64,000 bases of DNA from positions 29,852-93,851 of the forward strand of contig CAVYLP010000003.1 in NCBI GenBank assembly GCA_963769425.1, given 5' to 3'. The stretch comes from Candidatus Bathyarchaeota archaeon. Its GTDB lineage: Archaea > Thermoproteota > Bathyarchaeia > TCS64. A model generated the notes under the pieces. It was not told the origin of the DNA and searched no databases. It worked only from the letters and a program-made list of their open reading frames with translations. Positions 3,168-63,853 of this stretch are shown piece by piece. Position 1 is the first letter of the stretch; the number at the start of each line of letters is the position of its first letter. The translations under genes and the position numbers were made by a program.

Positions 3168-4253
3168 TCAACTACTAATGGTTTTGAATTTGTTCTGTAA
3201 CGCTGGATCTTCCTTTATTTGAACCAAGCTTTCCGGATAATAGCTAATAAACCATACCAAGAAAGATGTCACATCAATTTTATCATTCAATAAATGATTT
3301 CTCTTGACACGCCAATCTTGTTTGACACCATTCTCAGATATCAACATTGTAGCGTATTTCAAAGCCTCAGAAGGATTCGAAAAACTATGCAAAAGATCAT
3401 ACTTTTTCTCAAGTTCCAACAGATTACCCATTGTATTCGATAGCGATGAAACGTATACCGAAGGAGTGCCCAATAAGGCGGCTTCAGTCGCCATCGAAGC
3501 CCCCTCCCCCACATAAAGCGATGCATAATACAGTAAATCATGGATATACACTGGATGAATTGTTAATTTGAATTTTTCAATATCGTTTGGCAATTGCCCT
3601 TCGGCACTCACAAAAACTTTTCCATACTTCGATAATTCTTCAATAAATGCCATTTTATCAAGAATTCCTGTTTGACGAACATCATGTGTGGCGGTCCAAG
3701 CACTGAATCGGATAATTGTGAACTTATCCTCAATCTTAAGGCTAAGCATATCAAGAACAGCTGGATTTGGTGAAAACCATCTTGGGTGAAGATAAACTAT
3801 TTTTTGATCCCCTTGATACCTGATTTGTTTTGAACCTAAATTTAGCTTATAGTTATCAGGGGTAAAAATGACGCTCGTGAAGGGTGCGTACAATCTATAC
3901 TGTTCTCTCGAGTGCTCCGTATCTTCAAAAGTAATCGATGGTTTTTTTAATAGCCAGGCTACATGTGCTGCACGAACCTATCCAAGACCGATGAAAATAT
4001 CTGGCTTAAAATCCAATGCGGCTTTATACAGTTTTAAATCCATCAAAGGCATGTTCAATAATTTCTTAGTAATAGAATCGCCGTAATTACCAAAGTTGAT
4101 ATAATTAACACCATAGCAATCCAATAACTCAAAAACAATAGGTCTACCTGACGCTATAACTAATACTTTATTACCTAATCGCTCCATTTCACGGATAAAA
4201 TATTTGAAAAAGTGAACATGAGCAGGATGATTAATATCCGTAATGATATTCAA
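3168..4253 (-). pseudogene. DUF354-like protein (a predicted glycosyltransferase/epimerase-like family) interrupted by an in-frame TAG
   Basis: ORFs 3978..4253 and 3168..3893 are in the same frame on the minus strand. Translation reads ...IFIGLG * VRAAHVAWLLKKPSITFEDTEHSREQYRL-YAPF... through a TAG at 3978-3980. The C-terminal ORF starts at TTG. Confidence 0.55.
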
Positions 4254-4299
4254 TACACTCTAATATTATAGAATTGTTTTCTAAATATCAATTGAATGG

Positions 4300-5295
4300 T
4301 TATATTTGAGCCTCGATTCCCTTATACTTCAATTGCAAAATATTTTTAAAACAATCGAAAATTGGTTTTCTAATAAATTTATAATATTTTCCATAATTTA
4401 CCAAATTTCCACCAAATCTTCTCTTAAACTCACGGGGCCCGTAAGGCCTTTGAGGATTTCCCGCCCCTCCAAAGTCAAAAAATTTATATCCATTTTTACT
4501 GCCAATTTCTAAACCTAACCATACCATTAATTCATTTGAATATTCAGAAACGTCATTATACAAAGATCCAGCATACCAATCATACATTACATCCTTATAG
4601 GTCAGAAATATTCTTGTAACTATAGGCTCATCATTTTTATATCCAATTTTTCCTATTATTTGTCCCTTAAGATACTTAAAAGCATTGATAAAAACTATCT
4701 TGTTTGGATTAGGCATATTTACTCTTTTATAAGTATTACAAATAAGACGATACGATTCATCGATATTTTTTTGAGTTTTAATATCGGAAATCACGATATT
4801 TTTACTTAATGCTTTTTTAATATTTTTTCTTCTATTTTTAGGAATTGAATCCCATGTTATTTTTGAATCTAGATTTAGTGGTATTTCATAATTCAAGTGA
4901 TCCTCATAATAATAACTTATTTTTGAAAGAGCATTTTTAATGCTGCTTGTATCCCACATATTTTTAATATCTATCATAGAAGAAGGTATAATTTTTGGAT
5001 TTAATTCATCGATGTAGGATAATAGCATCGACGCATACATCGATTCATCGATAATTGGTCCCCCCTGAAAAGATAATCTTGAAAATAAATTATAATAATT
5101 TGTTAAATTCCCAACCATTAACCCCTTTATATTGTTATTATTTAATATAGTCAAACCCACTGATTTATTATAATTATCAATATTATTTACTTTATAATAC
5201 TCAGGCGTTTGAAATATATTGCCAAATTTATTAGTTAAAACATACTCTTTCCATTGTTTTTCATTAACTTTATCTATATTCATAATTTGTAGCAT
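4300..5295 (-). CDS. FemAB-like acyltransferase (FemABX / DUF482-like GNAT-fold family)
   Basis: C-terminal FDFGGAGNPQRPYGPREFKRRFGG motif characteristic of the FemAB family. 331 aa. Confidence 0.6.
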   Translation of the reverse strand: MLQIMNIDKVNEKQWKEYVLTNKFGNIFQTPEYYKVNNIDNYNKSVGLTILNNNNIKGLMVGNLTNYYNLFSRLSFQGGPIIDESMYASMLLSYIDELNPKIIPSSMIDIKNMWDTSSIKNALSKISYYYEDHLNYEIPLNLDSKITWDSIPKNRRKNIKKALSKNIVISDIKTQKNIDESYRLICNTYKRVNMPNPNKIVFINAFKYLKGQIIGKIGYKNDEPIVTRIFLTYKDVMYDWYAGSLYNDVSEYSNELMVWLGLEIGSKNGYKFFDFGGAGNPQRPYGPREFKRRFGGNLVNYGKYYKFIRKPIFDCFKNILQLKYKGIEAQI

Positions 5296-5298
5296 AAG

Positions 5299-6063
5299 TT
5301 ACCCTCCTCTAAAAATACGTATAGCCAATTTACCCGAGTTAAACAAATTATCTAAACACCAACTTATTACAAATTCAGAATAATTCGTTGCCCATCTTTC
5401 AGGGTGAATATTTAAATATAATTTAGAAAAGGACTTTGTGGAAATTACTTTTATTAAATCATTTGTATTTCTTATTTTAATCGAATTTATATCAGTTTTA
5501 ATGTAGTCCCTTAAATTGTTTTTATTATCCCAGCTACGTCCAGCATCCGTATAATAATCTATATCAGAAATAGATAGACTACCATCGCCAAGCAAATTAA
5601 AATCTTCAAACTTTACATTTTCCCAAATAGAGCTGCTCACATATCTCGACAAGGGCCGCCCATGCATGCTAATCGTATTAACATAGCATATTTTTCTAAA
5701 TTCTTCGAGCTCTTTCTTAAAAACATTAATGGCTTCAAATTGGTCACCATTTGTCTTGCAGAGCGTCTCATAATGATAGCCAATCTCATGCCCCATAACC
5801 GAAATTGATCGAATAATATCCTTATCAAAAACTCCAGAAGAATATCTAAAATAATATGTCGCTGAAATTCCTAAATTGTATTCCAGTTCAGCCATTTTTA
5901 AGGCATTCTTGGGCTTTCGGTCAACATCATGTCTTAAAATTATAAATCCATCCACCGGATGAGATTTTAAATATTCTTCTACGGTAATGAATCTATATCT
6001 AGAAATAATATTACACAGTTCTTTATACTTAGCTAATGTAAAATCAAGAGTCATATAGCTCAC
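5299..6063 (-). CDS. Polysaccharide deacetylase-like protein (carbohydrate esterase 4 superfamily-like)
   Basis: RHDVDRKP motif and His-rich metal-site residues (HEIGYHYE). It is separated by only 3 nt from the upstream FemAB-like gene. Confidence 0.5.
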   Translation of the reverse strand: MSYMTLDFTLAKYKELCNIISRYRFITVEEYLKSHPVDGFIILRHDVDRKPKNALKMAELEYNLGISATYYFRYSSGVFDKDIIRSISVMGHEIGYHYETLCKTNGDQFEAINVFKKELEEFRKICYVNTISMHGRPLSRYVSSSIWENVKFEDFNLLGDGSLSISDIDYYTDAGRSWDNKNNLRDYIKTDINSIKIRNTNDLIKVISTKSFSKLYLNIHPERWATNYSEFVISWCLDNLFNSGKLAIRIFRGG

Positions 6064-6204
6064 ATCGTAATGAATTAACGATCATAATTCTATTATTAAA
6101 TAGTATGCAATTTATTAAGAGTACGTTTCGCCGTTATTACAATGATTGCCAACCTAAATAAGAAAACAGTATTACTTTGAAGAACTCGTGCTAACTAATG
6201 AGTA

Positions 6205-7203
6205 TTAAAAAAATCGCCTTTTAAGGAGCCTCAAATACACTGACTCTGCGAATTTACCCCGTATATTCTGTTTCCTAACGGTATAAAAAGCGGTAAGTTT
6301 CGGTCCAAATTTTGATTTATATGTGGCAATTCCTTCTTTGTTAGCGCCTACAAAATCTATTTTTAGGATGCCTTCCTGCTTACATTTTTTTATGTTTTCC
6401 CAAGTGAGCAACTCATTTACAGGTATTTTTCCTTCAGGTCTTACGCTTCCAAGCCAATCCATGTAAGTATCATTGTGCCATAGAACAACTTCAGATCCGA
6501 CTATATCCTCGCCATTTTTTACTAAGTGGATGCATATATTATCTGGAAATAGTGCCCTAAGTTCGTTTAAATAATCTTTACTATATAATGGAATTGTTAA
6601 TCCTTGTTCAATATATCTCTTTGAAATCATACCAAATACAAGATCACTTTTATCAGTTTCAACTATTTTTATATTCAATTCTTCCGCTTTTCTTATTTTA
6701 GAACGTTTCTTAATATTAATACCCTTCCAAATTGTATCTATATCGGAAGATAAGTCTAGGATATATGTATAGTTAACATTCACATCATATCCACCCCAAA
6801 TTAACTGTCTAGTATCAATAATATCAGGCATGAACGAAATAAATATGTAATCGGGGTTTAATTGTTCTAATGTTTTAGAGAAATCATCATAAATAATCTT
6901 GAGATATTCTTCCTGTTTCTCTTGGTTAAAATCATAAAATGTGTCTTTAAGGGCATATCCAAGATAGGGTATACTAGCTCTCGGCGGTGGTGAGAATAAC
7001 ATCTTAACGGAATATTGTTGTTTATAGAAAACAGGGAATAAGCAAAACAGTTCATCGGTCTTAAAAAAACCGTAGGTTAACAAATCGAATCCAGAGTATT
7101 TAGCCGTTGTTTTAAGAAAATCCCAACGATGAAATATTGTTGAGTGACTGCAATCCTTAATGAATTTATCCCAGACCTGCGGGTCATCAATTATTTTTAT
7201 CAA
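6205..7203 (-). CDS. FemAB-like acyltransferase, paralog of 4300..5295
   Basis: C-terminal ...GILKIDFVGANKEGIATYKSKFGPKL resembles the FemAB signature. Size is similar (332 aa). Confidence 0.55.
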   Translation of the reverse strand: MIKIIDDPQVWDKFIKDCSHSTIFHRWDFLKTTAKYSGFDLLTYGFFKTDELFCLFPVFYKQQYSVKMLFSPPPRASIPYLGYALKDTFYDFNQEKQEEYLKIIYDDFSKTLEQLNPDYIFISFMPDIIDTRQLIWGGYDVNVNYTYILDLSSDIDTIWKGINIKKRSKIRKAEELNIKIVETDKSDLVFGMISKRYIEQGLTIPLYSKDYLNELRALFPDNICIHLVKNGEDIVGSEVVLWHNDTYMDWLGSVRPEGKIPVNELLTWENIKKCKQEGILKIDFVGANKEGIATYKSKFGPKLTAFYTVRKQNIRGKFAESVYLRLLKRRFF

Positions 7204-8572: not shown

Positions 8573-9662
8573 TTAATAGTAGTCCCCGTAGGAAAAGTGT
8601 ATTTTGCTAGGTTGGGAGTTCTCAAGGAGTTTGAACTCCTTCTTTGCCAGGTCGGTATGGCAATACATCATAAGTGGCAGATTGCTTCTGACATCAATAA
8701 AGCCCAATTTAGATGCAATTTTCTGGTAGTTATGACCTGCCACAACTCTATAATTTATAGCATTTACACTCAAGCCATCGAAGTAGTCACACGCGTCCAC
8801 AAACAGGCTTGAAGCCACATCCAATCTCCCAGGTAAAGCAAGGAGGTCCATTATGTAACCCTCCGATAACGCACCATCTCCCTTAACCTGAAGCACACAG
8901 TACCCCAGAATCTCTTCCCCCTCAGTGACCTGCTTGACAAGGATACGGTGCCATCGCGGATCTAAATATCTCCAATTCAGGTAATCTTTGTTCCTCTCAA
9001 CCACGAAATTTAGACCCGCCTTGACTCTGTCGTAGAAGACATTGATACGTTCATCGAAGAAAGATTTCTCGGCGATGACAAAGTCACCTCGATAGCTAGG
9101 TTTGGGAATCAATCTACCTTCAATCGATTTCATTCCTTTGAAAGTGCTGAAAGCAAAGCACTTCATAGTAGCATTTTCTATAGACACTGACCTGAAGTAT
9201 TTGCGAACGTTCTTCACTCTGAGCATGTGGCATATTGCATGTGGGAAGACCCTTCGACCCTTCTTGAAGTGGTGCTTCACTATAATGGGACTTAGAGGAA
9301 TTTCATAACTTACCTCATAGCCCTTACGGGTCAGCTCCAGCATGTTGGAGTCGAATACCCTAGAATATACCCCCAAACCTTTGAACTCCCTATGGGTAGC
9401 CGCGTCGTCTCCGTACCTCCCCATGAAGGTGCGGCTACCGATCTTTATTGTTAGAAGAATTGCATGATCAGCAGCCAACTACTTTTCCATCATTCACAGC
9501 AACAGTTATTATCGAGCCCTCGGGACAATCGATATACTTCCACCGCCAAAAATCAAGTGGAGCCTTTATTCTGGCCCAATCTGGAAATGACTGTATCAAT
9601 AATTCCACTATTCCCTCCTCATCGCCAGATTCATAAGGACGGACATTAAAATCAAGACTCAT
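8573..9662 (-). pseudogene. GNAT-family N-acetyltransferase (tandem-GNAT, about 360 aa), frameshifted
   Basis: ORF 9468..9662 gives the N-terminus (...ITVAVNDGKVVGC). ORF 8573..9478 gives the remainder (YGDDAATHREFKGLGVY acetyl-CoA motif). They are collinear with the intact paralog 11354..12442, but a 1-nt frame change falls near 9470-9480. Confidence 0.55.
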
Positions 9663-9972
9663 GTAGTTCGATTGGGTAGAAACCTATATAAAAAAATAAG
9701 TATGTTTGTACGCTCTATCGTAGCGTTCGAGAATATCCTATACTTGGCAGTGATGTCATTTACGACCGAAAACAAAGCCCTTTTAACGAGGTGGTTGGTT
9801 TAGAAATAAAGTTCAAGTAATTAGAGGTAAGATAAAGTGCATGTCGGGGACTATAAGGCGTGCACACATCACCCTAAAGAGCATCCATTTCATCTGACTG
9901 GAGACTCGGACAAACGATAAATATACAATTACAAAAAAGTATTGTCCCTGACGAGCACTTAGGAGGGAATAT

Positions 9973-11030
9973 ATGTCAAACGAGCTTCAAACAAGATTTT
10001 ATAAAAATGGCGATGAACTGGAAATCGTAAAATTACTAAGGCGTATTTTCGATGACTGGGCTGCTCCGCATAAAACCAATTGACTTCTGGAAATGGAAAT
10101 ATCAATCTACGCCCCTAGGGTCATCTATTGCGCTTGTAACAATCGACGATAAATTGGCAGGAATCTGGCCATAGGTTAAATTATCGAATTAAGATCGGAG
10201 AAAGGGTTCTAAGAAGTCATTACGGAGATGATTTCGCGACACATCCAGATTTCAGGGGCAGAGGTGTATATAATAAAGTACTTAATGTATTAGAAGATGA
10301 ACGTCATAATAGTGGGGTAAATTTTCTCTACACGATAACCACAAATCCAATCGTAATGAAAGATAATATCAAGATGGGCAGATTTGACTTACCCCAGCCA
10401 CTTCTACACATGATCCTTGTAAAGCAGGCTAGATCCGGAACGCAAGCAGGTCTTTACTTGTATGGCGGGTTAAAACGACTGACAAAAAGTCCTTCCCATG
10501 CCGCCTCCTCGAAACCCCATGGGGACTATTTAATCGAGACAATAAGGGAATTTAACGGTGCATCTGATACATTCTATGAACGAATAAAAGACTCATACAA
10601 CTTCATCGTCGAGAGAAACAAGGAATTCATGAACTGGCGGTACTGCGACATCAGAGGAGGCAGATTTTTAATTAAACAAGCAAAACGAGGCGATGACGTT
10701 TTAGGTTATATCATTCTTGAGGTTAAGACTAAAGGAGAAAACTCGGAAGGATACATCATTGATATGCTAGCTGAGGACGATGAGGTTGCTACTTCCCTTT
10801 TAAAAGATGGCATTAACTCTTTAGCAGTTCTAGGAGTTGGTACATTTAACTACAGGGTTGTAAAGAACCATCCCTATCAAAAAATTTCAGAAAAACTTGG
10901 CTTCGTGGCACCACCTAATGTAATTGATATGCATGTCTACTGTCAATTTGATAACGCTGAAGAAGCAAAGGAGACTCTTTTAGCGACTGAACCAGGAAGT
11001 ATACACTTCAATTATGGCGATTATTTCTAG
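9973..11030 (+). pseudogene. GNAT-family N-acetyltransferase paralog. The N-terminal half is broken by several frameshifts or stops. The C-terminal 224 aa form an intact ORF (10356..11030).
   Basis: Fragments MSNELQTRFYKNGDELEIVKLLRRIFDDW... and ...DFWKWKYQSTPLGSSIALVTIDDKLAGIW lie in different frames. The C-terminal part aligns with 11354..12442 (ERNKEFMNWRY, GYIIDMLA). Confidence 0.5.
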
Positions 11031-11353
11031 AAACCGGTATATATTTAATATTCATTGTTCAAAGAATCGTGTGTATGGAACGATATACATATTTTAGTAC
11101 TAGACAAGTTCCTTAACTGAATGCTACGTGCGCAAGAGAGGATATTTCAAAACGATTAGGCTAAAAGTATGTTGTAGGGAATGGGTTTTTTAGTATCGGA
11201 TTCCGTCCCCTCCAGGGTTTACGAATCTGGCTCTTAAAATACTTCTTAAATTTAAACATTATAGATCTAGATGATCATGTATAATTACATATATAAAGGG
11301 AAGCGAATCATTAGTAAAAAACAATATAACTTCCCAACATATTAAACATCATA

Positions 11354-12442
11354 TTGGACGACGATACAGTCATTAGAGTCTACAATCCAAGCGATGAGAA
11401 TGGCATTGTTGAACTCCTACAGATGTCATTCCCATTCTGGAAAAAGATTAAATCCCCTCTCAACTATTGGAGATGGAAATACCTTGAAAACCCGAAGGCC
11501 CCAATCATATTCATCGCCGAAACAGACGGCAAAATCGTAGGAGTCGATCATTTCACTAGGCTCAAGGCAAAAATAGGAGAATCAACCCAGGAAATATACT
11601 ACGGTGACGACGCTGCGACCCACCCTGATTATAGAGGTCGTGGAATCTATAACAAGATCAATAGGTTGCTTGAAGAAGAAAGAAAACGAAATGAGATTAA
11701 GATAGCTTTCTCGTTCACAACAAGCCAAACAGTTGTCAATAGGGGACTCGAAAAGGGCCGCCTTCCTTTTCCGCACCAACTAATTAACATGCTTAATGTG
11801 AATGACATAGACCTCTACCTTAAAACATCAAAGGTAAAAAACTTAACACTATATAGTCTTGGTTTCAAAATCCTTAAGACGGGTAACACGATTGTTAACC
11901 AATTTAAAGAAAAACAAAGAAACACAAATTTCGAGATAATTCAGGTCTCAAAATTTAAAGAGAATATGTGGGAGTTCTGGAAAACAATAGAACAAGAATA
12001 CTCTCTCATCTTCGAAAGAAGCAATGAGTACCTGAATTGGAGATACTCTGACCCCACTGCCGATGAAATAAAAATCCGAGAAGCCGTGATTAAGGACGAG
12101 GTAATCGGATATGTTGTGACCGAACTGAGGAATTATGCCGACAACATCCAAAAAGGCTACATTTTGGATCTTCTAGCGCTCCCCGAAAGACTCGACGCCG
12201 CTGGAAGCCTTTTAGAAAATGCTCTCAGTTACTTTAATAGTCTGGGAATAAATGGTGTCGAATATCAGGTTATTAGGGGACACCCATACCAGAGTCTAGC
12301 GAGCAAATATAACCTCGTAGACACGTCGCTGATATCTAAAAGATACTTTTCATGGCAATACAAGGGTGCTGAGAAAGAGTACGAGACAATCAAAGCAGCA
12401 CCGTCTAATAAAATTCACTTCACACTAAGCGACTATCTCTAA
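11354..12442 (+). CDS. GNAT-family N-acetyltransferase (362 aa), intact member of the three-gene paralog set
   Basis: YGDDAATHPDYRGRGIYNKI (R-G-x-G motif A). The second half repeats the GNAT-like fold (ERSNEYLNWRY...GYILDLLA). Confidence 0.6.
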   Translation: MDDDTVIRVYNPSDENGIVELLQMSFPFWKKIKSPLNYWRWKYLENPKAPIIFIAETDGKIVGVDHFTRLKAKIGESTQEIYYGDDAATHPDYRGRGIYNKINRLLEEERKRNEIKIAFSFTTSQTVVNRGLEKGRLPFPHQLINMLNVNDIDLYLKTSKVKNLTLYSLGFKILKTGNTIVNQFKEKQRNTNFEIIQVSKFKENMWEFWKTIEQEYSLIFERSNEYLNWRYSDPTADEIKIREAVIKDEVIGYVVTELRNYADNIQKGYILDLLALPERLDAAGSLLENALSYFNSLGINGVEYQVIRGHPYQSLASKYNLVDTSLISKRYFSWQYKGAEKEYETIKAAPSNKIHFTLSDYL

Positions 12443-13992: not shown

Positions 13993-14936
13993 TTAGCCCA
14001 CCAGGACTCTCTGCCTTGTCTTCGAAGATCTCAGAGCCTCCTCACAGAGGGTAAGTGCACGAAGACCGTCTTCCCCGGTTATCTCAGGAGATAAACCGTT
14101 GGCGACGTGGTCTATGAATGAGCGAAGTTCCTCCTGAAGAGGTTCTTTATATGGTAAAAAGGGCTGTACAATCATTTCGTTATTTTCGATGGTGATCTGC
14201 TGGGTAGTGTACTCGACGTTGATTATTCCTTCTGTTCCGGTTACTGTGAGTGTCCTGATTCTTCTTGGGGTAAGCCAGTTTGTTTCGATAAATGCACTCC
14301 GGTCTCTATCATAGAAAAGATTGATGTTAGCATAATCTTCATACTTATGCCTGATACACCCTGCTACGGCTGAAACATACTGTGGCTCCCCTATGAGAAT
14401 GTGATTAATAATATCAATATCGTGGATGGCAAGGTCTTTCACAACACCAACGTCACCAATCCGATCTGGACTTCGACTTACTCTACGGGAGTGAGCAAGT
14501 ATTACATCTCCAATTTCGCCATTGGAACTTCTCTATACACCTCTTGGACTGCGGGATTGAATCGTTCTACGAAGCCAACCGTTAGAAAGACCCCAGCTTT
14601 GTGGGCCTTATCGATCAGGTTTTTCGCCTCTTCAATTGTATTCGTCATCGGTTTCTCGACAAGAACATGCTTACCATTTTCAATGGCTTGTAGGGCGAGA
14701 TCGTGGTGTGTTATAGTTGGTGTACAAATATCGACGACTTGTATGTTAGGGTCGTGGAATATTATTTTTGGATCGGTGTAGTATGGTACATGGTAAAGTT
14801 CACCGATCTCTCTAGCGGTAGGTTCATGAGCATCCGATATTGCCACAAGTTTGGCTCCGGGTAGGCTCCTGTAAACGCGAGCGTGGTTTCGACCCCAGCT
14901 CCCACATCCTATTACTGCGGCATTAATCGTCGACAT
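13993..14936 (-). pseudogene. Gfo/Idh/MocA-family NAD(P)-dependent sugar oxidoreductase, split by a frameshift
   Basis: ORF 14502..14936 carries the Rossmann N-terminus (AAVIGCGSWGRNHARVY...EKP). ORF 13993..14442 carries the C-terminal domain. They are in different frames and joined near 14445-14505. Confidence 0.6.
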
Positions 14937-15464: not shown

Positions 15465-16740
15465 CTAAATATCGCCGTAATTATTTTTCCAGTTGTATTC
15501 TCTTCCTTTAGAATAATTGGGGCGTGGTAGATTATTTGCGAGTACGCTACCAACTATGCTTGTTTGGAGTGTTCCTAGGACGGCTATGTAGCGTGGAAAG
15601 TCGAAGTTGAGCGTGCTTACTTTCATTTGAATGAGGACGTCTTCACCCTGTTTGATCTCCTTAACCGACTGGATAAGGCCTAAACCCTCTACGAGAGTGT
15701 TTCTGAGTGCTTCCTCAATTGAAACATCATTATTTAGTGATTCGATTAAATCGCCACCAATCGGCATACGGATCATTAGCCCTAGCTTCCTATCGATATC
15801 TATAACGAGCCTCGGTGGGGCATCTACCAGTTTTTTAAATAGATTAAAATCAGTAGGCTCTCCGAGAGGTATATATGCATACGTTCTTCCCTCCTTACTA
15901 GGGAGATAGATCGCCTTCTCTTTAGCTTCGAATTGCTCGAGAATGGCTTCCACATTATATAATGACTCTTTTAACATCGCGAGCAGATTTTTATGGGGTG
16001 TGGGATCGTTTGGGAGCAGCATAGTGGTGGCGCCTAAAACGAATATGGCGATCCCTATCGCTGTAAAGAGACTGCTGTTGAATCTGAAAAATGCAATCAC
16101 TGACAGCCCGGCACCGATGGATGTGAGGATGAACCCAAGAAGGATGTAGGGGGAGATCTTAATCTTTCGCGTTGCCTTCACCTTGGATGGGCTCGTTTTC
16201 GATTCATTACGGTACCAAACGCGTACACCCCAGATTAGTAATACAAATACGCCCAAGGATGCGAGAAAAAGTGATACTCCTCTAGCGTTTATGTCTCGTA
16301 AAAAGTAGGAGAAGGGATGAGAAAAATCAGCTGAGACAACCCCATACCAGAGATACTTCGTTGCATTACTAAACGAATTATCAAAGTTGAGTCTATAGTA
16401 TCCATTTTCGTTGGCTGTCCACGTTACTTGTTCAGGGTTGATGATTCTCTTTTCGACTATAGACGTATTCGAGGGACTCTTTATGCTGAAATCGAGGTTG
16501 TTATTTCCGCCAGATATGTGGATCTCGACAGACTACTTTTGTTCCTTGGGGAAGCCAAGTCAAGAGATAATTCTGGGAGGAGGGATTAATAGTCGAATTT
16601 GCTTCCGTTGGATAAATGTGGTAAGATTCTGATACTATTAACGGTCCTACTATCATCAGACCAATACCTAGTAGTATCAGAAAAAAACCTGGAACTAAAA
16701 AAATCGTGTTGTTTCCCTTTAAAAAAGAACTCATGTCCAC
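15465..16740 (-). CDS. Membrane-anchored protein of unknown function. It is probably one gene whose annotated ORFs (15465..16256 and 16501..16740) are joined by an open frame and a frameshift.
   Basis: The 15465 frame stays open upstream to 16532 with no start codon. ORF 16501..16740 supplies an N-terminal TM segment in another frame. The 16256 start is TTG. Confidence 0.35.
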
Positions 16741-17033
16741 TAGTTACTTCGACCAGTTTAATAATAGTTTATGCCTTCTTGTTTCTGTTTGTTTTTTATG
16801 TAGAAAAGGTAGTGAAGAGGAAAGTAACAATGAGAACGAAAGTGCTATTGGGTTTCGGCGCACGCAATTCATAAATGGCTCAAATTAATTGGAAATTCAT
16901 AACAGTTTCTACAATCATTATCACTTATTAAAAAGAGTGTTTCGGGAATAAATTCTTATAAATGAGGATGAAAATCGCACCCTTTTCAAGGATGTATATT
17001 AATAGCTAAAAAAATAACTTTTATTGTTACAAA

Positions 17034-17311
17034 ATGGCATTCGATCCACTTGAATTGGTTATTATCGTCGTAGCAGTTGCACTTCTTTTCTAGGGCCCAA
17101 GCAGATCCCCGAACTAGCGAGAGCACTCGGAAGAGCAAGAGGTGAGTACAGTAAAGCCAGCAAGGAAATAGATAACGAGGAGAAGCCTAAATCACGAAAG
17201 GAGACCCCCGAAGACCCGTTAACAACTGTGGCCCTAAGCCTAGGAATAAGCGTGGAAGGAAAGTCAAAGGACCAGATTGCTAAGGAGATAATTGATAAAA
17301 AATCTTTCTAA
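17034..17311 (+). pseudogene. Second TatA-like gene (tatA paralog) disrupted by a 1-nt frame change at a G-run
   Basis: Frame 0 gives MAFDPLELVIIVVAVALLF then TAG (17091-17093). The +2 frame from 17093 gives GPKQIPELARALGRARGEYSKASKEIDNEE...KKSF*. Joined, they match TatA (…LIWGPNKIPELARALGRAKNEYSKA). The break falls where TatA1 has Trp (TGG). Confidence 0.6.
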
Positions 17312-17379
17312 GAAAAGATGAGTTTTAGGATTCCTCGTCTAAGCGGACTCATTAGTCATGATATTTCACATAGTCAAGA

Positions 17380-18288
17380 CTATATTCTTGACTTCCCGCA
17401 CTTCCGGCAGAATGCCTCATTCCCCTTAAACTTAGTCCCACAATAATTGCACTTGGATTCGACTGCTTTAGGGAATTCAATGAGGTTTGGAGTCACCCTG
17501 TTCTTCTCATACCTCTTAGCAACTATAATCGCGCCCTCGATCATTATAATCACTGGTATGAATAGAGCAAGATCCGCGAGCGGGCCTCCATCTGGACTTA
17601 TCAGCGCTGTGATGGCGTAGATTATAATGTAGAAGATCTTCCTGTTCTGTGTGATGATGGAGGTACCAACTACGCCAAATTTTACCAGAAGCACAAAAAA
17701 GACCGGAAATGTAAATCCAAATCCAGTGAATAGTACCGTAGTGAAGATCATCGAGTAGAAATCAAGAGCCGTGATGATTGGCTGCGCGCCCACGAACTGT
17801 GCGAAAATAATCACCGTCAACGACATAAATGGAGCTAAAAATAGGTAACCGAAGGCTGCCCCGGCTGCGAAGAAGAGTGTAAATCCTAACACAAAGGGGT
17901 AAACTGCCTTCCTTTCGTTCTCTAGCAGGGCTGGATTAATGAATTGAAATATCTCGTATCCAATGATCGGGGAACTGACAACAAACCCGAGTAGGATAGA
18001 GGCGAAGACATAAACCTCGAGAGGATCACCAATCTGCAGACTGATAATCTGTAGCTCAGTTGGAGCAACATAGTTCTTGACGACCTCCAGCATGACCGAG
18101 ATCATTGGTCTGTAAAATCCTGTAAGAAAACTTGAAGGATTAATTAAATCAAGGGGATTCGCGGGGAAAAGCATGAAAAAGATAGTGCTTACGAGAAGTG
18201 CAATAATAATAACCTTAGATCTGTCGGCCAACTCCTGAACATGCTCAAGAAAATTAGCCACTATACCAGGTTCTTCAGTCGCCGCCAC
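17380..18288 (-). CDS. tatC: Sec-independent protein translocase TatC with a C-terminal zinc-ribbon extension
   Basis: Six hydrophobic segments. N-terminal HVQELADRSK and SPDGGPLADLALFIPV match TatC motifs. C-terminal CNYCGTKFKGNEAFCRKCG. It lies 46 nt downstream of tatA. Confidence 0.85.
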   Translation of the reverse strand: MAATEEPGIVANFLEHVQELADRSKVIIIALLVSTIFFMLFPANPLDLINPSSFLTGFYRPMISVMLEVVKNYVAPTELQIISLQIGDPLEVYVFASILLGFVVSSPIIGYEIFQFINPALLENERKAVYPFVLGFTLFFAAGAAFGYLFLAPFMSLTVIIFAQFVGAQPIITALDFYSMIFTTVLFTGFGFTFPVFFVLLVKFGVVGTSIITQNRKIFYIIIYAITALISPDGGPLADLALFIPVIIMIEGAIIVAKRYEKNRVTPNLIEFPKAVESKCNYCGTKFKGNEAFCRKCGKSRI

Positions 18289-18334
18289 ATAGCATCCCTA
18301 CAGGACTGGTGAGTAATTAAAAAAAGGAAAGACC

Positions 18335-18631
18335 TTAGAGGTTGGTCTTCTTCGCAACAATCGCGTCGGCGATCTCATCCCGCGTCTTCCCGACTGTTTC
18401 GATGCCGAGTTGCTGCGCCACCTCAATGATTTTATCGGGTGCCGGAGCACTCTTAGGAGCCTCCTTCATGGCCTCCTGCGTGAAGACCTCTACCTCACTC
18501 GCGGCCTTAGAATATTCATTCTTCGCGCGTCCGAGCGCCCTGGCTAATTCAGGGATCTTGTTAGGTCCCCAGATCAGGAATATCATGATGGCTCCGACAA
18601 TTACAACCAGTTCAAGTGGATCTAACGCCAT
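18335..18631 (-). CDS. tatA: Twin-arginine translocase subunit TatA (98 aa)
   Basis: MALDPLELVVIVGAIMIFLIWGPNKIPELARALGRAKNEYSKA. N-terminal TM segment plus amphipathic helix. Confidence 0.85.
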   Translation of the reverse strand: MALDPLELVVIVGAIMIFLIWGPNKIPELARALGRAKNEYSKAASEVEVFTQEAMKEAPKSAPAPDKIIEVAQQLGIETVGKTRDEIADAIVAKKTNL

Positions 18632-18917: not shown

Positions 18918-19951
18918 TTGGTTAGAAAATACGTAACTCCTATAATGGTAAAAATCACATCTGTGTCTGATAACACATTGGAAAAAGTAGGCGAACCTTC
19001 ATTAAAGCAATACTTGAACCAAATCATTGACTACGTAAAGACAAAAGAACAACCCAACAAACAAATTACCTCAAATAAACTCGTAGAAACACTCTTCGAC
19101 ACACTACTCTCACACGACTTCTGCTACCTAACGAGAACCCAAGTCGTACCCTACACATCGCAGATAATCGACGCATTCCAATCCGCAACACAGAAAAACA
19201 AACCACTACCCATGTACCTTGACCTCGGGCCCGGATACCACGCAGCCCTTGAAAAAAGCGACCCAAGACGCCTCTCCTTCGAGGTAGACCTAGGAGAACT
19301 CCTAGTTCTATATCAGATGAGAAAATTCATCAATAGAGTAAATAAAATCTATCCACCCGGGGCTGAGTTCAACATTATAATTGACAACGTGTGCGCTGTC
19401 TACGTAAACGACATCAACACTAAGGAAACGGAGCACTACTGCAGCCGATTCAGGGAACTAATAAGAGAGATGAATATGGAGGACCATGTAAAACTCCTCG
19501 TCGAATCGGAGCACTTCAACGTATCAGACTATGATGTTAAACCAATCCCCGAAGATGAAATAAAATCCTACGAACTCACAAAAGATGAACATGAAAACGT
19601 CGAACGATTCATTGGGCGCGCCTGCTCCAAAGAAGAGGCAATTAGGAGAATACTAACATACAAACAGATAGGAGACAGAACAGATGAGTTATTCTACAGC
19701 TTTTTCCAACACGGAGTACACATGACACAGAGAGCCTCAAAGCACAACGATAAGCTTCAGACCATTCCCAGGAGGCGACTCTAGGATACAGAGCCGGAAA
19801 AGTCGTCCTCGGCATCAACAACAGAAACAAAGTGTATCCCTTCCTGTTAACCAGCACCAACTACGAAAAATTCGTATATGAGAGCTTCACCTTCCCGGAG
19901 ATTCAACCGAAGGCAATTCGAGAAATAACGTTCGCTCACCCATCATAAATA
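18918..19951 (+). pseudogene. Hypothetical protein with tentative similarity to the DIT1/PvcA (isonitrile synthase) family. The C-terminus continues in another frame.
   Basis: The main ORF ends at TAG 19782-19784. The adjacent frame continues as GYRAGKVVLGINNRNKVYPFLLTSTNYEKFVYESFTFPEIQPKAIREITFAHPS. The segment IYPPGAEFNIIIDNVCAVYVNDI recalls the PvcA/IsnA core from memory only. Confidence 0.35.
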
Positions 19952-29844: not shown

Positions 29845-29851
29845 GCGAACA

Positions 29852-37632: not shown

Positions 37633-37637
37633 TCAAA

Positions 37638-38276: not shown

Positions 38277-38287
38277 TTCAATGCCTC

Positions 38288-40475: not shown

Positions 40476-40479
40476 CAGT

Positions 40480-44359: not shown

Positions 44360-44510
44360 ACCCCCCTGAGCGAGAAATCAAGCTGAGACCACGCTATCAG
44401 GCGGTGCTTCACTGAACCTCGAGAGCACCTCATACGTCTTAAGAGCGTCCCTCTCAAAGACCAGTATAATCATCTCCGCATCACAACTCATGAAGTCGGT
44501 TATGTTAATC

Positions 44511-45067: not shown

Positions 45068-45213
45068 GACACATGGTTTAACATTTGCCGGATATTAGAC
45101 ACGTTTCTACACGAATATCTTCGACCCCAGAGAACATTGCGACTAGATTTAAGCTATCTTCCACTGCCGACATTCAAATATATGCACATATTAATTGAAC
45201 CACTGACACGATC

Positions 45214-45876
45214 ATGGATGAGTCGCAGCAATCACTCAGCGATAACTTGAGAGAGATCATCGAAAAAGACCCTGTGATAAAACAAGCTCTTACAAGAGGA
45301 TTCGTTAACATTAGGGCGCTTGCCAGAATGATTCAACCTCAGATGAGTGATAAACCCACGCTCGAGGCCATCGTTAGCGCTATAAGGAGATATCCAGTCA
45401 ACGAGAGTTACTCAAAATATAGCGAAATCGGGAAGCTCATCGGAAAGCTCACGATGAAAAATAAGATAGCAGCTTTGACGATAGAAAACGAACTAAACGT
45501 GAACCTGGCTCTCGACAAACTCTTGGCTGATACCTGGGTCAAAGGAGGAGACACTCTACACATCGTCAAGGGCATCAATTCTTTGAGGGTACTAGTTGAC
45601 ACTAAGAACCTGGACAAGCTTATTGCGGTTATTCCCAAGAAATATATTCGCAAAACCAACAGGGGGCTCGCCGAGATAGTGATTGGTATGAGCAACCTCC
45701 AGAGAAAGGCTCCAGAGATCGGCGTCATTGCCACTTTAACATCCGAGGTCGCTTTGAACGGTATAAGTCTCACCGACTTCATGAGCTGCGACGCAGAGAT
45801 GATTGTCATAGTGCGTGAGAAAGATGCGTTGAGGTGTTACAAAACACTGGAGAAGTTAAGCCAAGAGGGTAGCTAA
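45214..45876 (+). CDS. Hypothetical protein with an N-terminal HTH-like segment (220 aa). It may be an ACT-like regulator.
   Basis: ORF only. LREIIEKDPVIKQALTRGFVNIRALARMI looks helix-turn-helix-like. Confidence 0.45.
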   Translation: MDESQQSLSDNLREIIEKDPVIKQALTRGFVNIRALARMIQPQMSDKPTLEAIVSAIRRYPVNESYSKYSEIGKLIGKLTMKNKIAALTIENELNVNLALDKLLADTWVKGGDTLHIVKGINSLRVLVDTKNLDKLIAVIPKKYIRKTNRGLAEIVIGMSNLQRKAPEIGVIATLTSEVALNGISLTDFMSCDAEMIVIVREKDALRCYKTLEKLSQEGS

Positions 45877-45916
45877 TTTTTCCAGTTTGTAAGTCGATTG
45901 CGTGCGTAGATACGAA

Positions 45917-46748
45917 GCGCTAGCCTGTTTAGAAAACCATCTTCAAAGACCTTAACCCCGCTAACCTCGACCTAACCGAGACAGACTCCAATACCCCATC
46001 CAAAAATCAAACTCCAAGTCATCTCAGTAGACCCGAAGCCCACCCGCCAAAACGATGGAAAAACCTCAGAAAGCCCCCTCAGCAACGACGCACTCACTTA
46101 ACAAAGCCCTTTATACACATGACCAGATCAGGAGACCCCAACCTCACCGAAGCCAACGCAACGGCAAGCATAGAGATCAGACTCAGCAAGACATGGATCA
46201 CCACACAAGTCCACCCCCTCACTTGGAGACCATCAAGCATCAATTACTCCTTCGCCCTCCCGAAGAGCCTCTCTATGCTCCACCTCTTCCTGAACAGCTT
46301 CACGATCCGCCTAGCACCCCTAGCCATGAAGTCCCTGCCCGCCCTGAAGGCATCCCTCAGCCTCGAGTTCCTCCTCACTGGGATAATGGGCTCGGCACCA
46401 AGCCACTCAGCCGCGTCCCTCGCGTTCTGAGACCCATATTGGCTGTCGGCGAGCACCGACTTAAATCGGACGCCAAGGCGATGAACCGCCTCCAGAAGCG
46501 GCTCGAAGTGAAGCTTGGAGGCTGAGTTGTCTGTCGCTGGGGATTCGGAGGAGGTGTTTGGCTAGTTGGGCTTTCAGCATGGCGAGTGGTTTGATTTGGG
46601 TTCTTCCTGGTCCTGTGTGGTGGTAGTGGTTTGTTAGATTTGTGTGTATCTGGTCTAGGTTGAGTGAGTCAAGCACGCGCTTAACATTCAACCTACCTCA
46701 ATGGAGATTTGGGTTGGTCTCTATATTAATTTCTAAACAGGCTAGCGC
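45917..46748 (-). mobile_element. Degenerate copy (832 bp) of the same IS family as 22219-23492, with perfect 19-bp terminal inverted repeats
   Basis: IRs are gcgctagcctgtttagaaa (45917-45935) and tttctaaacaggctagcgc (46730-46748). Inside lie transposase fragments in two frames (46461..46691 N-terminal LKAQLAKHLLRIPSDR; 46244..46456 C-terminal ADSQYGS...RWSIERLFGRAKE). Confidence 0.65.
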
Positions 46749-46781
46749 GCAAATTACGAGCACAAAGCGCACGTGTTATTG

Positions 46782-49017
<2,236 letters not shown>

Positions 49018-61889: not shown

Positions 61890-61971
61890 TGAAAACAGGA
61901 GGCGACGGCTTCAAGATAAGCTATTCCATGAGGGCGCCGGGATACGGTGAAATATTCTGAGCGGGGATATC

Positions 61972-62817
61972 GTGTTGATTCGTATGGGCAGACTTGAGGG
62001 TAAGGTCGCGGTGGTCACAGGCGCCACCGGGGGCATAGGCGAGGCGAGCGTCAGACTCTTCGCATCGGAGGGGGCCAGGATCATAGCGGCCGACGTCGAG
62101 GACGAGAGGGGACACCGCCTAGAGAGTGGATTGAAGGGCAAGGTGGTCTACCGCCACACCGATGTCTCGAAGGAGGAGGATGTCAGGGACGCGGTGAAGG
62201 ACGCCGTGGACAACTGGGGGCGCCTAGATGTCATGTTCAACAACGCGGGTATCGTCGGCGCCGTCGGCTCAATAGAGGAGGTGAAGCTAGAGGACTTCGA
62301 TAGGACCCTCAGGGTCAACCTCAGGGGGGCCTTTCTCGGGGTAAAGCACGCCGCCCCCGTGATGAGGAAGCAGGGCTCGGGGAGCATAATAAACACGGCG
62401 AGCACCGCCGCCGTCCTCGCGGGCTTCGGCAACCACATCTACAGCGCCTCGAAGGCGGGGATAGTCCAGCTAACCCGAAGCGTCGCCATGGAGCTTGGGG
62501 AGGCGGGTATCAGGGTGAACTGTGTCAGCCCCGGCTACATACCGACGCCGATGATAGGAATAGCTAGGAGCCTGACCAGGGACCAGGCGGAGGAGAAGAT
62601 GCACATCATCGAGGACGCCTTCAGGGACGCCCAGCCGCTCCGTGGCCCAATAATGCCCGAGGAGGTCGCAAAGGCAGCACTCTTCCTAGCTAGCGATGAT
62701 TCCAAATTCATCACGGGACAGAACCTATTCGTCGACGGCGGAGTCACCGGCGGAAAGATGTGGAGGGACTACCAGAAGGGGACGAACAGTCTCAGGGAGG
62801 CCCTCGAGAAGGGATGA
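61972..62817 (+). CDS. Short-chain dehydrogenase/reductase (SDR)
   Basis: TGATGGIG cofactor motif. YSASKAG catalytic Tyr-x3-Lys. Confidence 0.8.
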   Translation: MLIRMGRLEGKVAVVTGATGGIGEASVRLFASEGARIIAADVEDERGHRLESGLKGKVVYRHTDVSKEEDVRDAVKDAVDNWGRLDVMFNNAGIVGAVGSIEEVKLEDFDRTLRVNLRGAFLGVKHAAPVMRKQGSGSIINTASTAAVLAGFGNHIYSASKAGIVQLTRSVAMELGEAGIRVNCVSPGYIPTPMIGIARSLTRDQAEEKMHIIEDAFRDAQPLRGPIMPEEVAKAALFLASDDSKFITGQNLFVDGGVTGGKMWRDYQKGTNSLREALEKG

Positions 62818-63377
62818 GCGCTAAGGTAACGGTCCTAGGCGTTGCAGGTAGCCCACGCAGAGGAGGAAATACTGAGACACTTCTGGACGAGGTCCTAAGA
62901 GGTGCCAAGGATGCGGGTGCGGAGACTGAGAAGGTGGTCCTCGCACAATCCAACGTTGGCCCCTGTAGAGCATGCAACGCGTGCTCACGGACAGGAATCT
63001 GCATACAAGACGACGACATGGCAGCAATCATCGAGAAGATGAAGGCGTCCAGGGTCTGGGTCCTCGCCACCCCGGTCTACTGGTGGGGCCCAACCGCACA
63101 GATGAAGGCGTTCATAGACAGGTGGTACGCCGTCCCCAGAAAGGAATTCAGGGGCAAGCGCATCATACTCGCCGCCTCCTCGAACGGAGGTGAAACCTAC
63201 CAGAAGCTAATGATAGAGATGTTCAGTGAGATCATCGACTACCTCGGCATGGAGAAGTACCGTGTCCTCCAAGCGGCGGGCACCGACGCGAAGACATCGG
63301 CCAGAAACAACTCCGCCCTCATGGAGGCGGCCCACGCCGCGGGGTTCGACGCTGTCAAGACGCTGAGTGATCCTTGA
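62814..63377 (+). CDS. NADPH-dependent FMN reductase / iron-sulfur flavoprotein-like protein. Its start overlaps the SDR stop (ATGA).
   Basis: MSAKVTVLGVAGSPRRGGNTE flavodoxin-like P-loop. CRACNACSRTGIC cluster motif. Annotated ORF 62760..63377. Confidence 0.6.
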   Translation: MSAKVTVLGVAGSPRRGGNTETLLDEVLRGAKDAGAETEKVVLAQSNVGPCRACNACSRTGICIQDDDMAAIIEKMKASRVWVLATPVYWWGPTAQMKAFIDRWYAVPRKEFRGKRIILAASSNGGETYQKLMIEMFSEIIDYLGMEKYRVLQAAGTDAKTSARNNSALMEAAHAAGFDAVKTLSDP

Positions 63378-63853
63378 AGCCGTCGATCGTTACCATCTCT
63401 TCCCTGACCTTCCACCCGCAGTCACGGCAGGTGTTATCGTACCACGATAGGGGGTAACCGCATCTTTGGCAGTTCCACCGCTCCGCCTGCTCCCTCAGCC
63501 AGCCTTCCGAGCCGCCGGATTCGATCACCTTCAGGGACCCCATGAGCGTCCTCGCCCCTGTAGGCGGAGAAGTCGACGATGTACTTGTAGTCGGGGCACT
63601 CTTCGAACTCATCGCATTGGGCACAGTTCTCTATGCCTCTCTTCTTCTGGCAGGCCTTGATGCCACACTTCTGGCAGTTTATCCACTGCTCCTCGTATGG
63701 TGAGGAGCAGCCGTTGCACTTTATCTCGTCCTCGGGGACGTTGAATCGCCTCGCCATCTCCTTGAGGAGTTCCCCGCCGTCCCTCTCCGCTCTGTAGATG
63801 AAGCATGCGCCGCAGTATATTCCGCATTTGCTGATGAGTCTCTCGTCGACCAC
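63355..63853 (-). pseudogene. Cys-rich DUF3795-like protein, apparently frameshifted
   Basis: 63434..63853 gives the N-terminal CGIYCGAC...CNGC...CQKC...CAQC. 63355..63624 gives the C-terminal ...WNCQRCG...CRDCG in another frame. Confidence 0.35.

Follow-up and report, generated by a model that had tools for sequence, protein, structure and literature searches.

Interrupted genes in a bathyarchaeial metagenome contig are probably residual consensus errors

Introduction

Pseudogene-rich genomes in recent decay are found in Mycobacterium leprae, Sodalis glossinidius, and host-restricted Salmonella or Shigella. The lesions in such genomes include numerous nonsense codons as well as larger deletions and IS insertions and are shared among close relatives, and constraint on the affected genes is relaxed. 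In some archaea, TAG is decoded as pyrrolysine. In sequencing, homopolymers are the classic site of Nanopore errors. Stewart et al. (2019; PMC6785717) describe post-assembly indels in single-molecule (Nanopore/PacBio) assemblies, which lead to premature stops and truncated predicted proteins, and the IDEEL test, which was built for such truncating indels.

The window analyzed here, a stretch of 64,000 nt, belongs to a contig of 383,910 bp from a complex community. It resembled decaying genomes in that 23% of its genes were interrupted, some of them by several lesions, with an IS nearby and with accessory genes and duplicated paralogs preferred. However, its source is a free-living soil/sediment lineage (Bathyarchaeia), 17 of the 18 lesions were frameshifts of 1–2 nt, none of the nine that could be compared was shared with relatives, and constraint was intact in the tested genes. 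With single-molecule assembly errors it had in common 1–2 nt indels that caused premature stops and split genes in otherwise conserved genes, and assembly-private lesions at tens per 100 kb with siblings affected at other positions. It differed from them in its many non-homopolymer lesions, in clustering instead of uniformity, and in one substitution; the technology behind the contig, we infer, was Nanopore with Flye and Medaka.

Interrupted genes and their lesions

Three-frame translations revealed 18 lesions in 13 of ~57 genes (52.7 kb of coding sequence), a proportion far above what is usual for a finished prokaryotic genome. All twelve items that the first-pass annotation had listed as interrupted were real in the deposited sequence, and since one of them, DUF1254/DUF1214, consists of two adjacent genes, the count became 13 genes. 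The lesions comprised one TAG nonsense codon and 17 frameshifts (nine net +1 and eight net −1), at a density of ~28 per 100 kb. Every frameshift had a net effect of ±1, and the nine that could be polarized represented seven 1-nt and two 2-nt events. Positions are given below as the permissible interval of each frameshift, derived from frame comparison. Upon repair, the genes formed full-length ORFs that matched Pfam models continuously across the lesion sites, and no sequence or domain was lost. The truncated products of the interrupted genes were already present in protein databases as separate entries.

The sole non-indel lesion was found in the DUF354 glycosyltransferase-like gene (3168–4253, minus strand), in which a genuine in-frame TAG at 3978–3980 (reading ...FIGLG*VRAAHV) occupied a column that was Ser in 113 of 120 homologues. 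The repaired protein gave a single continuous PF04007 match (residues 2–267). GNAT1 (8573–9662, minus strand) contained one net +1 frameshift at 9471–9478, based on its frames relative to those of the intact paralog GNAT3. This permissible interval of 8 nt, TTGGCTGC, held no homopolymer, and the repaired protein matched PF13527 across the site. GNAT2 (~9960–11030, plus strand) carried two net +1 frameshifts, at 10040–10080 and 10140–10171, according to frame comparison and Pfam matches after repair. In the Gfo/Idh/MocA oxidoreductase gene (13993–14936, minus strand), one net −1 frameshift lay between the Rossmann and C-terminal domains. It had been placed at ~14470, and the permissible interval was instead 14505–14532, without a homopolymer of 4 nt or more.

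In the GOLD-domain membrane protein gene (15465–16734, minus strand), one net +1 frameshift at 16504–16532 split the N-terminal TM segment off the remainder of the protein, and repair raised the PF01105 score from 25 to 38 bits. The gene tatA2 (17031–17311, plus strand), compared with tatA1 and the orthologue in contig L019, had one net −1 frameshift at 17054–17092, for which the T4 run at 17086–17089 was the best candidate. The lesion must be located at or before ~17092, and the G-run (17091) proposed previously was excluded. The PvcA/DIT1-like gene (18945–19948, plus strand) was interrupted near its C-terminus by one net −1 frameshift at 19754–19781, again without a homopolymer of 4 nt or more. 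The DUF1214 gene (23998–24640, minus strand) had one extra base (+1) at 24446, and its copy in contig L025 was intact (224 aa). In the neighboring DUF1254 gene (24640–25260, minus strand), frames and the L025 alignment located a −1 at ~25034 and a −2 at ~25010, within 24995–25040. These two lesions were 24 nt apart and summed to one codon, and the repaired protein scored 139 bits against PF06863.

The gene for a D-aminoacylase-like amidohydrolase (42551–44359, plus strand) showed a −1 at 43943, a +2 at 44040–44041 in a C-run, and a −1 at 44101 in the alignment with contig L023. These indels summed to zero, and three edits restored a 602-codon ORF that was 94% identical to the L023 copy, with a C-terminus that aligned to D-aminoacylase 1m7j. 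The TAG at 43949, regarded earlier as a nonsense codon, turned out to be an out-of-frame stop exposed by the 1-nt deletion at ~43943. The adjacent DUF7523 paralog (44390–45067, minus strand) had a −1 at ~44751 in a T/A run and a +1 at ~44549, also from the L023 alignment; an intact paralog was found at 45214–45876. In katG (46782–48963, minus strand), one base was inserted at 48745–48751 (CAA GA[G] C TGG), outside any homopolymer. Intact KatG (P0001, L018) was 97% identical, and relatives read TDSQ(N/D)WWPADYG at this site. The DUF3795-like gene (63360–63853, minus strand) had one net +1 frameshift at 63538–63541, which is most easily explained by one G too many in a G4 run.

The statement that several lesions lie at homopolymers was correct for the ~5–6 that touched runs of 4–5 nt, but at least eight permissible intervals contained no run of 4 nt or more. 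The number of multiply-hit genes fitted random placement (P ~0.2). Regionally, the lesions were clustered (P = 0.0025), and two stretches of coding sequence, 14.7 and 11.6 kb long, were free of them. Most of them were located in accessory, island-like DNA adjoining the IS and a genuinely truncated gene, and the long housekeeping-type genes in the window were intact.

It is extremely unlikely that these genes are expressed via recoding, in which TAG would stand for pyrrolysine or some other amino acid, or the frame would be restored by programmed ribosomal frameshifting or transcriptional slippage; this may be considered effectively refuted already. The in-frame TAG of DUF354 does lie at a conserved position inside an otherwise conserved gene, as in archaeal pyrrolysine decoding. 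However, TAG terminated 7 of the 44 intact genes, which argues against amber recoding, the position corresponded to a conserved Ser and not to Pyl, and Pfam scans of the window gave no pyl gene. This was the single true in-frame TAG, because the second supposed one was the by-product of a frameshift, and on these counts the earlier rejection of amber reassignment was upheld. The 17 frameshift intervals shifted the frame in both directions and shared no common slippery motif, and none of the tested sites recurred in relatives, unlike programmed sites, which are conserved.

Comparison with relatives and same-run contigs

The relatives L018, L023, and L025 were contigs from three ENA metagenome assemblies with Flye-style "contig_N" names. 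The lesion-sharing test covered the nine of 18 lesions for which relatives at 87–96% DNA identity were present, and none of the nine was shared (one in katG, three in the aminoacylase gene, two in the DUF7523 paralog, two in DUF1254, and one in DUF1214). On either side of each tested lesion, the similarity to the relatives was the same, and no haplotype switch was visible.

The relatives contained private lesions of their own. In L025 (94.8% DNA identity), both DUF1254 lesions were absent and a separate +1 was found at window position 24969; an M28 gene also carried one private lesion. In L023, the DUF7523 paralog was broken elsewhere, in a G-run at window position 44870, and further private lesions occurred in the aminoacylase gene (two) and a MutL-like gene (one). 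Thus, the aminoacylase gene and the DUF7523 paralog in L023, and DUF1254 in L025, were also broken by different lesions, with an overlap of P ~0.04 for L023. L018 had private 1-nt lesions in genes that were intact in the window: two in an XDH-like gene, one in a DsrE gene, and ~10 in an aminotransferase gene. The last were single-base insertions, yet the protein identity was 94% and 72% of the differences fell at third codon positions. This combination is biologically implausible, which indicated that such assemblies demonstrably yield clustered false lesions.

Three k-mer-assembled contigs from run ERR12035932 matched the window at 8,076 of 8,078 positions and spanned none of the lesions; the consensus was thus accurate where it could be checked. 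The Logan contig L024 ended at window position 3983, 2 nt upstream of the DUF354 TAG. The same-run Logan contig that broke near this TAG had 2 differences from the window within 3.7 kb.

Selection and indel spectrum

Purifying selection appeared to have left the same signature in the tested interrupted genes as in the intact genes around them, more weakly in DUF1254 and DUF1214. In the aminoacylase gene, 75–76% of the differences were at third positions, and the divergence at positions 1+2 was 3.6%, compared with 5.0% in intact neighbors. The third-position fraction of katG was 78%, with an amino-acid identity of 97.5%, and at most one of the 17 window-private replacements in KatG fell in the 58% of columns that were at least 95% conserved (P = 8e-6). 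DUF1254 and DUF1214 evolved faster, and their third-position excess was weaker (0.39–0.67). No relaxed selection was found in katG, the aminoacylase gene, or the DUF7523 paralog; the test covered 5 of the 13 genes, these three together with DUF1254 and DUF1214. The dN/dS check suggested in the first-pass annotation thus came out as undiminished purifying selection for these three genes and as a weaker signal for DUF1254/DUF1214.

The ratio of frameshifts to nonsense codons was 17:1, and +1 and −1 shifts were about equally frequent. In the pooled pairwise comparisons, none of the 47 frameshifting indels inside genes reached 4 nt, whereas 11 of the 56 between genes did (Fisher P = 8e-4). For this lineage, the ratio of indels to substitutions in intergenic DNA was at most 0.115. 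At that ratio, the five frameshifts found in total in the two copies of the aminoacylase gene should be accompanied by 43 or more neutral substitutions, which were not seen. The 18 lesions in the window did not form a mixed spectrum in which nonsense codons occur alongside larger deletions and IS insertions; there was one separate IS truncation. Judged from these comparisons, the lesion spectrum appears unnatural.

Origin of the interruptions

We consider it probable that almost every interruption is a consensus error left over from metagenome assembly, most likely from long reads only, and not a mutation in the organism. The consensus would have gained or lost a single base, sometimes two, at the frameshift sites, and elsewhere one base would have been miscalled. 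The errors would have arisen preferentially where the consensus was weakest, plausibly at low coverage or strain mixture in accessory regions, and this may account for the regional clustering. Each error would shift the reading frame, so that gene prediction yields truncated or split genes, and the underlying genes would be intact and functional in the cell. The first-pass annotation had left the choice between gene decay and indel-type assembly error. Assembly error was favored by the lack of shared lesions, the lesions in sibling assemblies, and the intact selection, and decay was retained for a COX2-like gene alone. Several observations speak against consensus error: the lesions cluster in island-like DNA near an IS, a setting in which true pseudogenes would be expected as well; independent assemblies carry different breaks in the same genes; at least eight lesions are outside homopolymers, and one is a substitution that puts TAG in place of a conserved Ser; evolution is faster in DUF1254 and DUF1214; and the consensus is accurate in the checkable same-run contigs.

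Some of these observations would also fit genuine, very recent pseudogenes, that is, accessory genes under relaxed selection with small indels too recent for substitutions to show. The affected genes would then be a glycan-biosynthesis island, the spare paralogs tatA2, GNAT1/2, and the second DUF7523 copy, together with katG and the aminoacylase gene. The clustering in island-like DNA that contains an IS and an integrase-like remnant as well as an IS-truncated gene is consistent with this, as are the intact paralogs near several of the broken genes (tatA1, GNAT3, and DUF7523 at 45214–45876), the breakage of the aminoacylase gene, the DUF7523 paralog, and DUF1254 by other lesions in relatives, the somewhat relaxed constraint on DUF1254 and DUF1214, the intact long housekeeping-type genes, and the substitution in DUF354. 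We regard this origin as unlikely, because no testable lesion was common to relatives, multi-lesion genes showed no excess of non-synonymous change, KatG replacements avoided conserved columns, and large deletions and domain loss were absent. Moreover, the 17:1 ratio and the restriction to 1–2 nt differed from the natural intergenic indels of the same lineage, and some lesions in sibling assemblies, e.g., the ~10 insertions in a conserved aminotransferase, cannot have a biological origin. Should the lesions be real, free-living Bathyarchaeia would accumulate lineage-private 1–2 nt frameshifts in accessory genes far above the substitution rate, which seems quite doubtful. This could be caused by an indel-biased mutational regime, or by recent parallel inactivation of the aminoacylase gene, the DUF7523 paralog, and DUF1254 in sister lineages. 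A collapsed consensus of co-existing strains would be an artefact of another subtype, in which the underlying variation would be real and haplotypes, stitched together at differences in indels or gene content between strains, would give reading frames not found in any one cell. Relatives at 94–96% and 87% identity occurred in sibling samples, a sister genome shared genes at 90% or more, the lesions were concentrated in accessory regions, and the same-run Logan contig broke beside the DUF354 TAG like a variant bubble. Nevertheless, strain collapse is very improbable, given that the flanks of the tested lesions revealed no haplotype switch and that single-base frame errors are atypical of haplotype switching.

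If nearly all breaks are consensus errors, the finding itself is ordinary. In this region, roughly one gene in four would then be wrongly annotated as a pseudogene or a split protein, and metabolic inferences for the genome would be wrong, e.g., the loss of catalase-peroxidase or of a glycan-modifying enzyme. Such artefacts can be flagged without reads from lesion sharing among relatives, the codon-position signature, conserved-column avoidance, and the indel size spectrum. If the lesions are real, they would indicate that accessory genes of an uncultured archaeal lineage are being inactivated unusually fast and in parallel, a result of moderate interest.

The COX2-like gene and the IS

A COX2-like gene (21826–22302, plus strand) and an adjoining IS, with a transposase gene at 22415–23251 on the minus strand, occupied positions 21826–23492. 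In tblastn comparisons (P0154 and P0155), the homology of the COX2-like gene to relatives of 223 aa stopped at residue 131 (window position 22218), and the alignment with L018 placed the start of the IS at 22219. The copy in the sister genome (P0155) was truncated at the same residue. The truncation at the IS boundary is a genuine disruption, the only one so supported, and it was absent from the earlier list of interrupted genes. The two IS copies reported there were reduced to one, since a single transposase gene and no repeats of 150 nt or more were found in the window. The island-like region also holds an integrase-like remnant.

Inventory of the interrupted genes

Three-frame translation bore out the interruption of every gene listed in the first-pass annotation. 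Each frameshift was placed by computing the stretch over which the upstream and downstream frames are simultaneously open. The inventory comprised 17 frameshifts (nine net +1 and eight net −1) and one nonsense codon, distributed over 13 of ~57 genes. These represented 23% of the genes in the window, and the lesion density far exceeds that of finished genomes. One lesion each was found in the genes for DUF354 (TAG), GNAT1, Gfo/Idh/MocA, a GOLD-domain membrane protein, tatA2, the PvcA-like protein, DUF1214, katG, and DUF3795; GNAT2, DUF1254, and a DUF7523 paralog contained two each, and the aminoacylase gene had three. When the frames were joined, every protein gave a single unbroken Pfam match spanning its lesion, such as DUF354 over residues 2–267, DUF1254 with 139 bits, and the Gfo protein with both domains.

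Some details of the earlier description were revised. The TAG at 43949 in the aminoacylase gene, previously read as an in-frame stop, is out of frame and exposed by a 1-nt deletion at ~43943; the three lesions of this gene (−1, +2, and −1) all fall inside 160 nt. The open-frame interval ruled out a G-run as the site of the tatA2 lesion, and the candidate is instead a run of four T at 17086–17089. It had been stated that several lesions lie at homopolymers: ~5–6 of them do touch short homopolymers, but at least eight intervals have no run of ≥4 nt. The TAG in DUF354 is a true substitution, in a column that is Ser in 113 of 120 homologues. As noted before, TAG also terminates intact genes (7 of 44), which indicated that it functions as a regular stop codon in the window. 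The earlier rejection of amber reassignment was thus upheld, and amber/pyrrolysine recoding and programmed frameshifting were effectively excluded.

In trials that scattered 18 lesions randomly across the coding sequence, the number of distinct genes hit was 13 or fewer in 14% of cases and at least four genes were hit repeatedly in 21%, so that several lesions per gene gave no signal by itself. Two lesion-free blocks, measuring 14.7 and 11.6 kb in coding length, were larger than expected (P = 0.0025), which indicated that the lesions were clustered regionally.

Comparison with close relatives

A search with the repaired KatG recovered an intact protein of 724 aa (P0001) with 97% identity. The contig that encodes it, L018 (ENA ERZ25039502 contig_241626), had 94–96% DNA identity and was syntenic over 59.3–46.75 kb and parts of 22–33 kb of the window. 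Cluster look-ups yielded two further contigs, L023 (ERZ25039480 contig_50775), 87% identical over 32.8–45.9 kb, and L025 (ERZ25039477 contig_100026), 94.8% identical over 30.6–23.5 kb. The first-pass annotation had named a comparison with closely related genomes as a check, and none of the nine lesions covered by these contigs (katG, one; aminoacylase, three; DUF7523 paralog, two; DUF1254, two; DUF1214, one) was present in a relative.

Each relative was itself interrupted by private single-base lesions, in genes whose window copies are intact. The private lesions of L018 were in the XDH-like gene (two insertions), the aminotransferase gene (about 10), and DsrE; those of L023 were in the MutL-like gene, the aminoacylase gene (two +1, at positions unlike those of the window), and the paralog (in a G-run); those of L025 were in the M28 peptidase gene and DUF1254 (again at another position than in the window). 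The aminotransferase gene of L018 (7213–8555; window 51898–50543) contained nine single-base insertions and one deletion within ~830 bp, and its flanking genes were clean. It shared 94% protein identity with the window copy, and 72% of the differences were at third codon positions. Ten real frameshifts could not be compatible with such conservation. This demonstrated that assemblies of this kind produce false lesions, and in clusters.

The gene order was rearranged among these close relatives. A 14-kb block (window 32725–46752), comprising two DUF4438 genes, an M29-like gene, a five-gene membrane operon, and the MutL-like, aminoacylase, and DUF7523 pair genes, was missing from L018 between katG and the cupin/DsrE/DsrC cluster; L023 has the block, but with other right-hand neighbours. 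L018 also lacked ThiI (30780–31817) and the 23.5–29.3 kb segment.

A sister genome, represented by a contig of 1,024,914 bp, shared TatA, TatC, Alr, and the COX2-like gene at ≥90% identity. In the genome contig scan, the best genome matches of the MutL-like gene were Bathyarchaeia MAGs with 61–81% protein identity, in which synteny was limited to one operon and which were uninformative about the interrupted genes. The tatA genes flanking tatC on both sides (17031–18631) had the same arrangement in the relative L019 (9346–10949). L019 gave the best TatC match in the metagenome contig scan, with 81% protein identity, and shared only the tatA-tatC-tatA arrangement with the window. The maintenance of this arrangement at such a level of identity indicated that tatA2 is old and retained, rather than a recent spare duplicate.

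Selection and lesion spectrum

For the selection tests, the frames were repaired first and the window was compared with the copy of the relative by codon position. Between the window and L023, 75–76% of the differences in the aminoacylase gene were at third positions, with 91–94% amino-acid identity. The gene was indistinguishable from its eleven intact neighbours, in which the third-position share was 59–84%, and its divergence at codon positions 1 and 2 was 3.6%, compared with 5.0% pooled for intact genes. The broken DUF7523 paralog (62% at third positions and 6.9% divergence at positions 1 and 2) was inside the intact range. In katG, 78% of the differences from L018 were at third positions, with 97.5% amino-acid identity. 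Relative to 39 outgroup KatG proteins, the window KatG displayed 17 private replacements, of which at most one fell in columns conserved at ≥95%, which make up 58% of all columns (P = 8 × 10⁻⁶). The replacements avoided the conserved columns and had thus passed purifying selection, with no trace of neutral decay or random substitution error. Constraint was normal in these three interrupted genes but less clear in DUF1254 and DUF1214, which evolved faster and showed a weaker third-position excess (0.39–0.67).

In the intergenic parts of the same alignments, the ratio of frameshifting indels to substitutions was at most 0.115, which is an upper bound because errors also occur in intergenic DNA. 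At this rate, five frameshifts, the number carried by the two aminoacylase copies together, should be accompanied by at least 43 neutral substitutions, at least 29 of them at positions 1 and 2. The observed substitutions at positions 1 and 2, 43 in total, were already under the background level of intact genes. All 47 in-gene frameshifting indels were 1–2 nt long, and 11 of the 56 intergenic ones were ≥4 nt (Fisher P = 8 × 10⁻⁴; pairwise comparisons pooled). The 17:1 ratio of frameshift to nonsense lesions is unlike natural inactivation spectra. Pseudogene surveys lead to the expectation that nonsense codons account for at least 30% of such lesions, under which this ratio would have P = 0.014.

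Cause of the interruptions

The first-pass annotation had proposed either gene decay or indel-type assembly error. Assembly error was favoured by the absence of shared lesions among the nine compared and by intact selection in the katG, aminoacylase, and DUF7523 paralog genes, and decay was supported only for the COX2-like gene. The main cause is probably errors left in the consensus of a metagenome assembly, likely one made from long reads only. With consensus error the most likely cause, the interruptions would not be a real feature of the organism, except for the IS-truncated COX2-like gene. The source contig, deposited at NCBI and ENA, measures 383,910 bp, and a contig of 384 kb from an uncultured soil or sediment archaeon implied long reads; the contig names of the relatives (e.g., contig_241626) are Flye-style, and their ENA analysis accessions are consecutive. 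Post-assembly indels in single-molecule data are documented to introduce premature stop codons and to truncate the predicted proteins (PMC6785717). The accessions ERR12035932, ERZ25039502, and ERZ25039480 were not found in the texts searched for the Nanopore-only Microflora Danica project.

It is unlikely, given the spectrum and the constraint on the repaired frames, that the lesions are very recent genuine pseudogenes, although they are clustered regionally in island-like DNA, many of them lie away from homopolymers, and one is a substitution. Several hit genes have intact paralogs, DUF1254 and DUF1214 are somewhat relaxed, and the aminoacylase, DUF7523 paralog, and DUF1254 genes are broken differently in the window and in a relative (overlap P ~ 0.04 for L023), all of which would suit such pseudogenes. 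A collapsed consensus of several strains is more improbable still.

Logan, a k-mer based assembly, contained three contigs of run ERR12035932 that matched the window: L001 (35452–38054) and L022 (12171–13979) were 100% identical, and L024 (7648–3983) was 99.95% identical. None of them spanned a lesion. L024 ended at window 3983, 2 nt from the DUF354 TAG, which hints at read heterogeneity there; the chance of any of six contig ends lying within 5 nt of any lesion was ~0.02. It has two mismatches, C for T of the window at 7449 and 7486, which lie 37 nt from each other within a polysaccharide deacetylase gene; they reflect either variation between strains or miscalled consensus bases. Exact-protein look-ups of 16 fragment variants of the truncated lesion products found none in Logan and none outside the source record; this absence was uninformative, because Logan holds only ~20% of the intact window proteins.

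Truncation of the COX2-like gene and other remnants

Two IS copies had been reported previously, but the window contains only one transposase gene and no repeat of ≥150 nt. The IS starts at 22219 and encodes a transposase (DDE_Tnp_1 and DUF772, 22415–23251). It begins exactly where the homology of the COX2-like gene (cytochrome oxidase subunit 2; 21826–22302, 158 aa) to its 223-aa relatives stops, at residue 131 (window 22218), and the remainder of that gene was not found elsewhere in the window. P0155, the copy in the sister genome, shows 100% identity as far as residue 131, where it is truncated as well. The IS boundary and the shared end indicated that the truncation (region 21826–23492) is real, inherited, and IS-associated. 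It is a genuine case of decay beyond the genes originally listed, and it differs in character from the 18 small lesions.

An integrase-like remnant was located at 25396–25870, between DUF1254 and the lyase gene, in two frames ('...GLRPDEISKIKLSF' / 'GDRGELSVRTSKLG...'). The corresponding position in L025 has no called gene. The remnant probably represents a recombinase that underwent genuine decay long ago. At 31926–32318, a single stop separates two ORFs that share a reading frame ('...EALTRPTTH*TTPTHIEAKIKS...'), and the first contains a zinc-ribbon-like CPxC motif. The alignment of this region to L018 and L025 displayed several indels. It could be a further interrupted small gene, or merely two adjacent ORFs.

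Layout of the window

Based on Pfam matches, the 64-kb window of this Bathyarchaeia archaeon opens with a low-GC glycan-biosynthesis island (1–17 kb) containing GT1, DUF354, FemAB-like, polysaccharide deacetylase, three GNAT paralog, GT2, and Gfo/Idh/MocA genes. This is followed by the tatA-tatC-tatA locus, PvcA-like gene, alanine racemase, and IS; then by DUF1254 and DUF1214, lyase, M28 peptidase, and DsrC/DsrE/cupin; then by the operon with the MutL-like gene last, the D-aminoacylase-like gene, and two DUF7523 paralogs; and finally by katG, fur, NifU/aminotransferase, the XDH-like molybdoenzyme, and others.

GC content was 24% at the left end of the window and 62% at its right end. This GC mosaic is extreme for one contig, with 24–32% at 1–8 kb (in the glycan island), 41–55% in the middle, and 59–62% at 52–54 and 58–64 kb. 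It could reflect horizontally acquired islands, and mis-joins are less likely. Logan contigs of one run matched both the low-GC and the mid-GC parts.

The glycan island is notably rich in acyltransferases. The GNAT-domain proteins (~360 aa) are encoded by three tandem paralogs at 8573–12442, GNAT1 on the minus strand and GNAT2 and GNAT3 on the plus strand, and all three share a conserved C-terminus ('...IHF(S/N/T)xGDY(Y/F/L)'). A further Acetyltransf_6/FemAB-like pair was located at 4300–7203.
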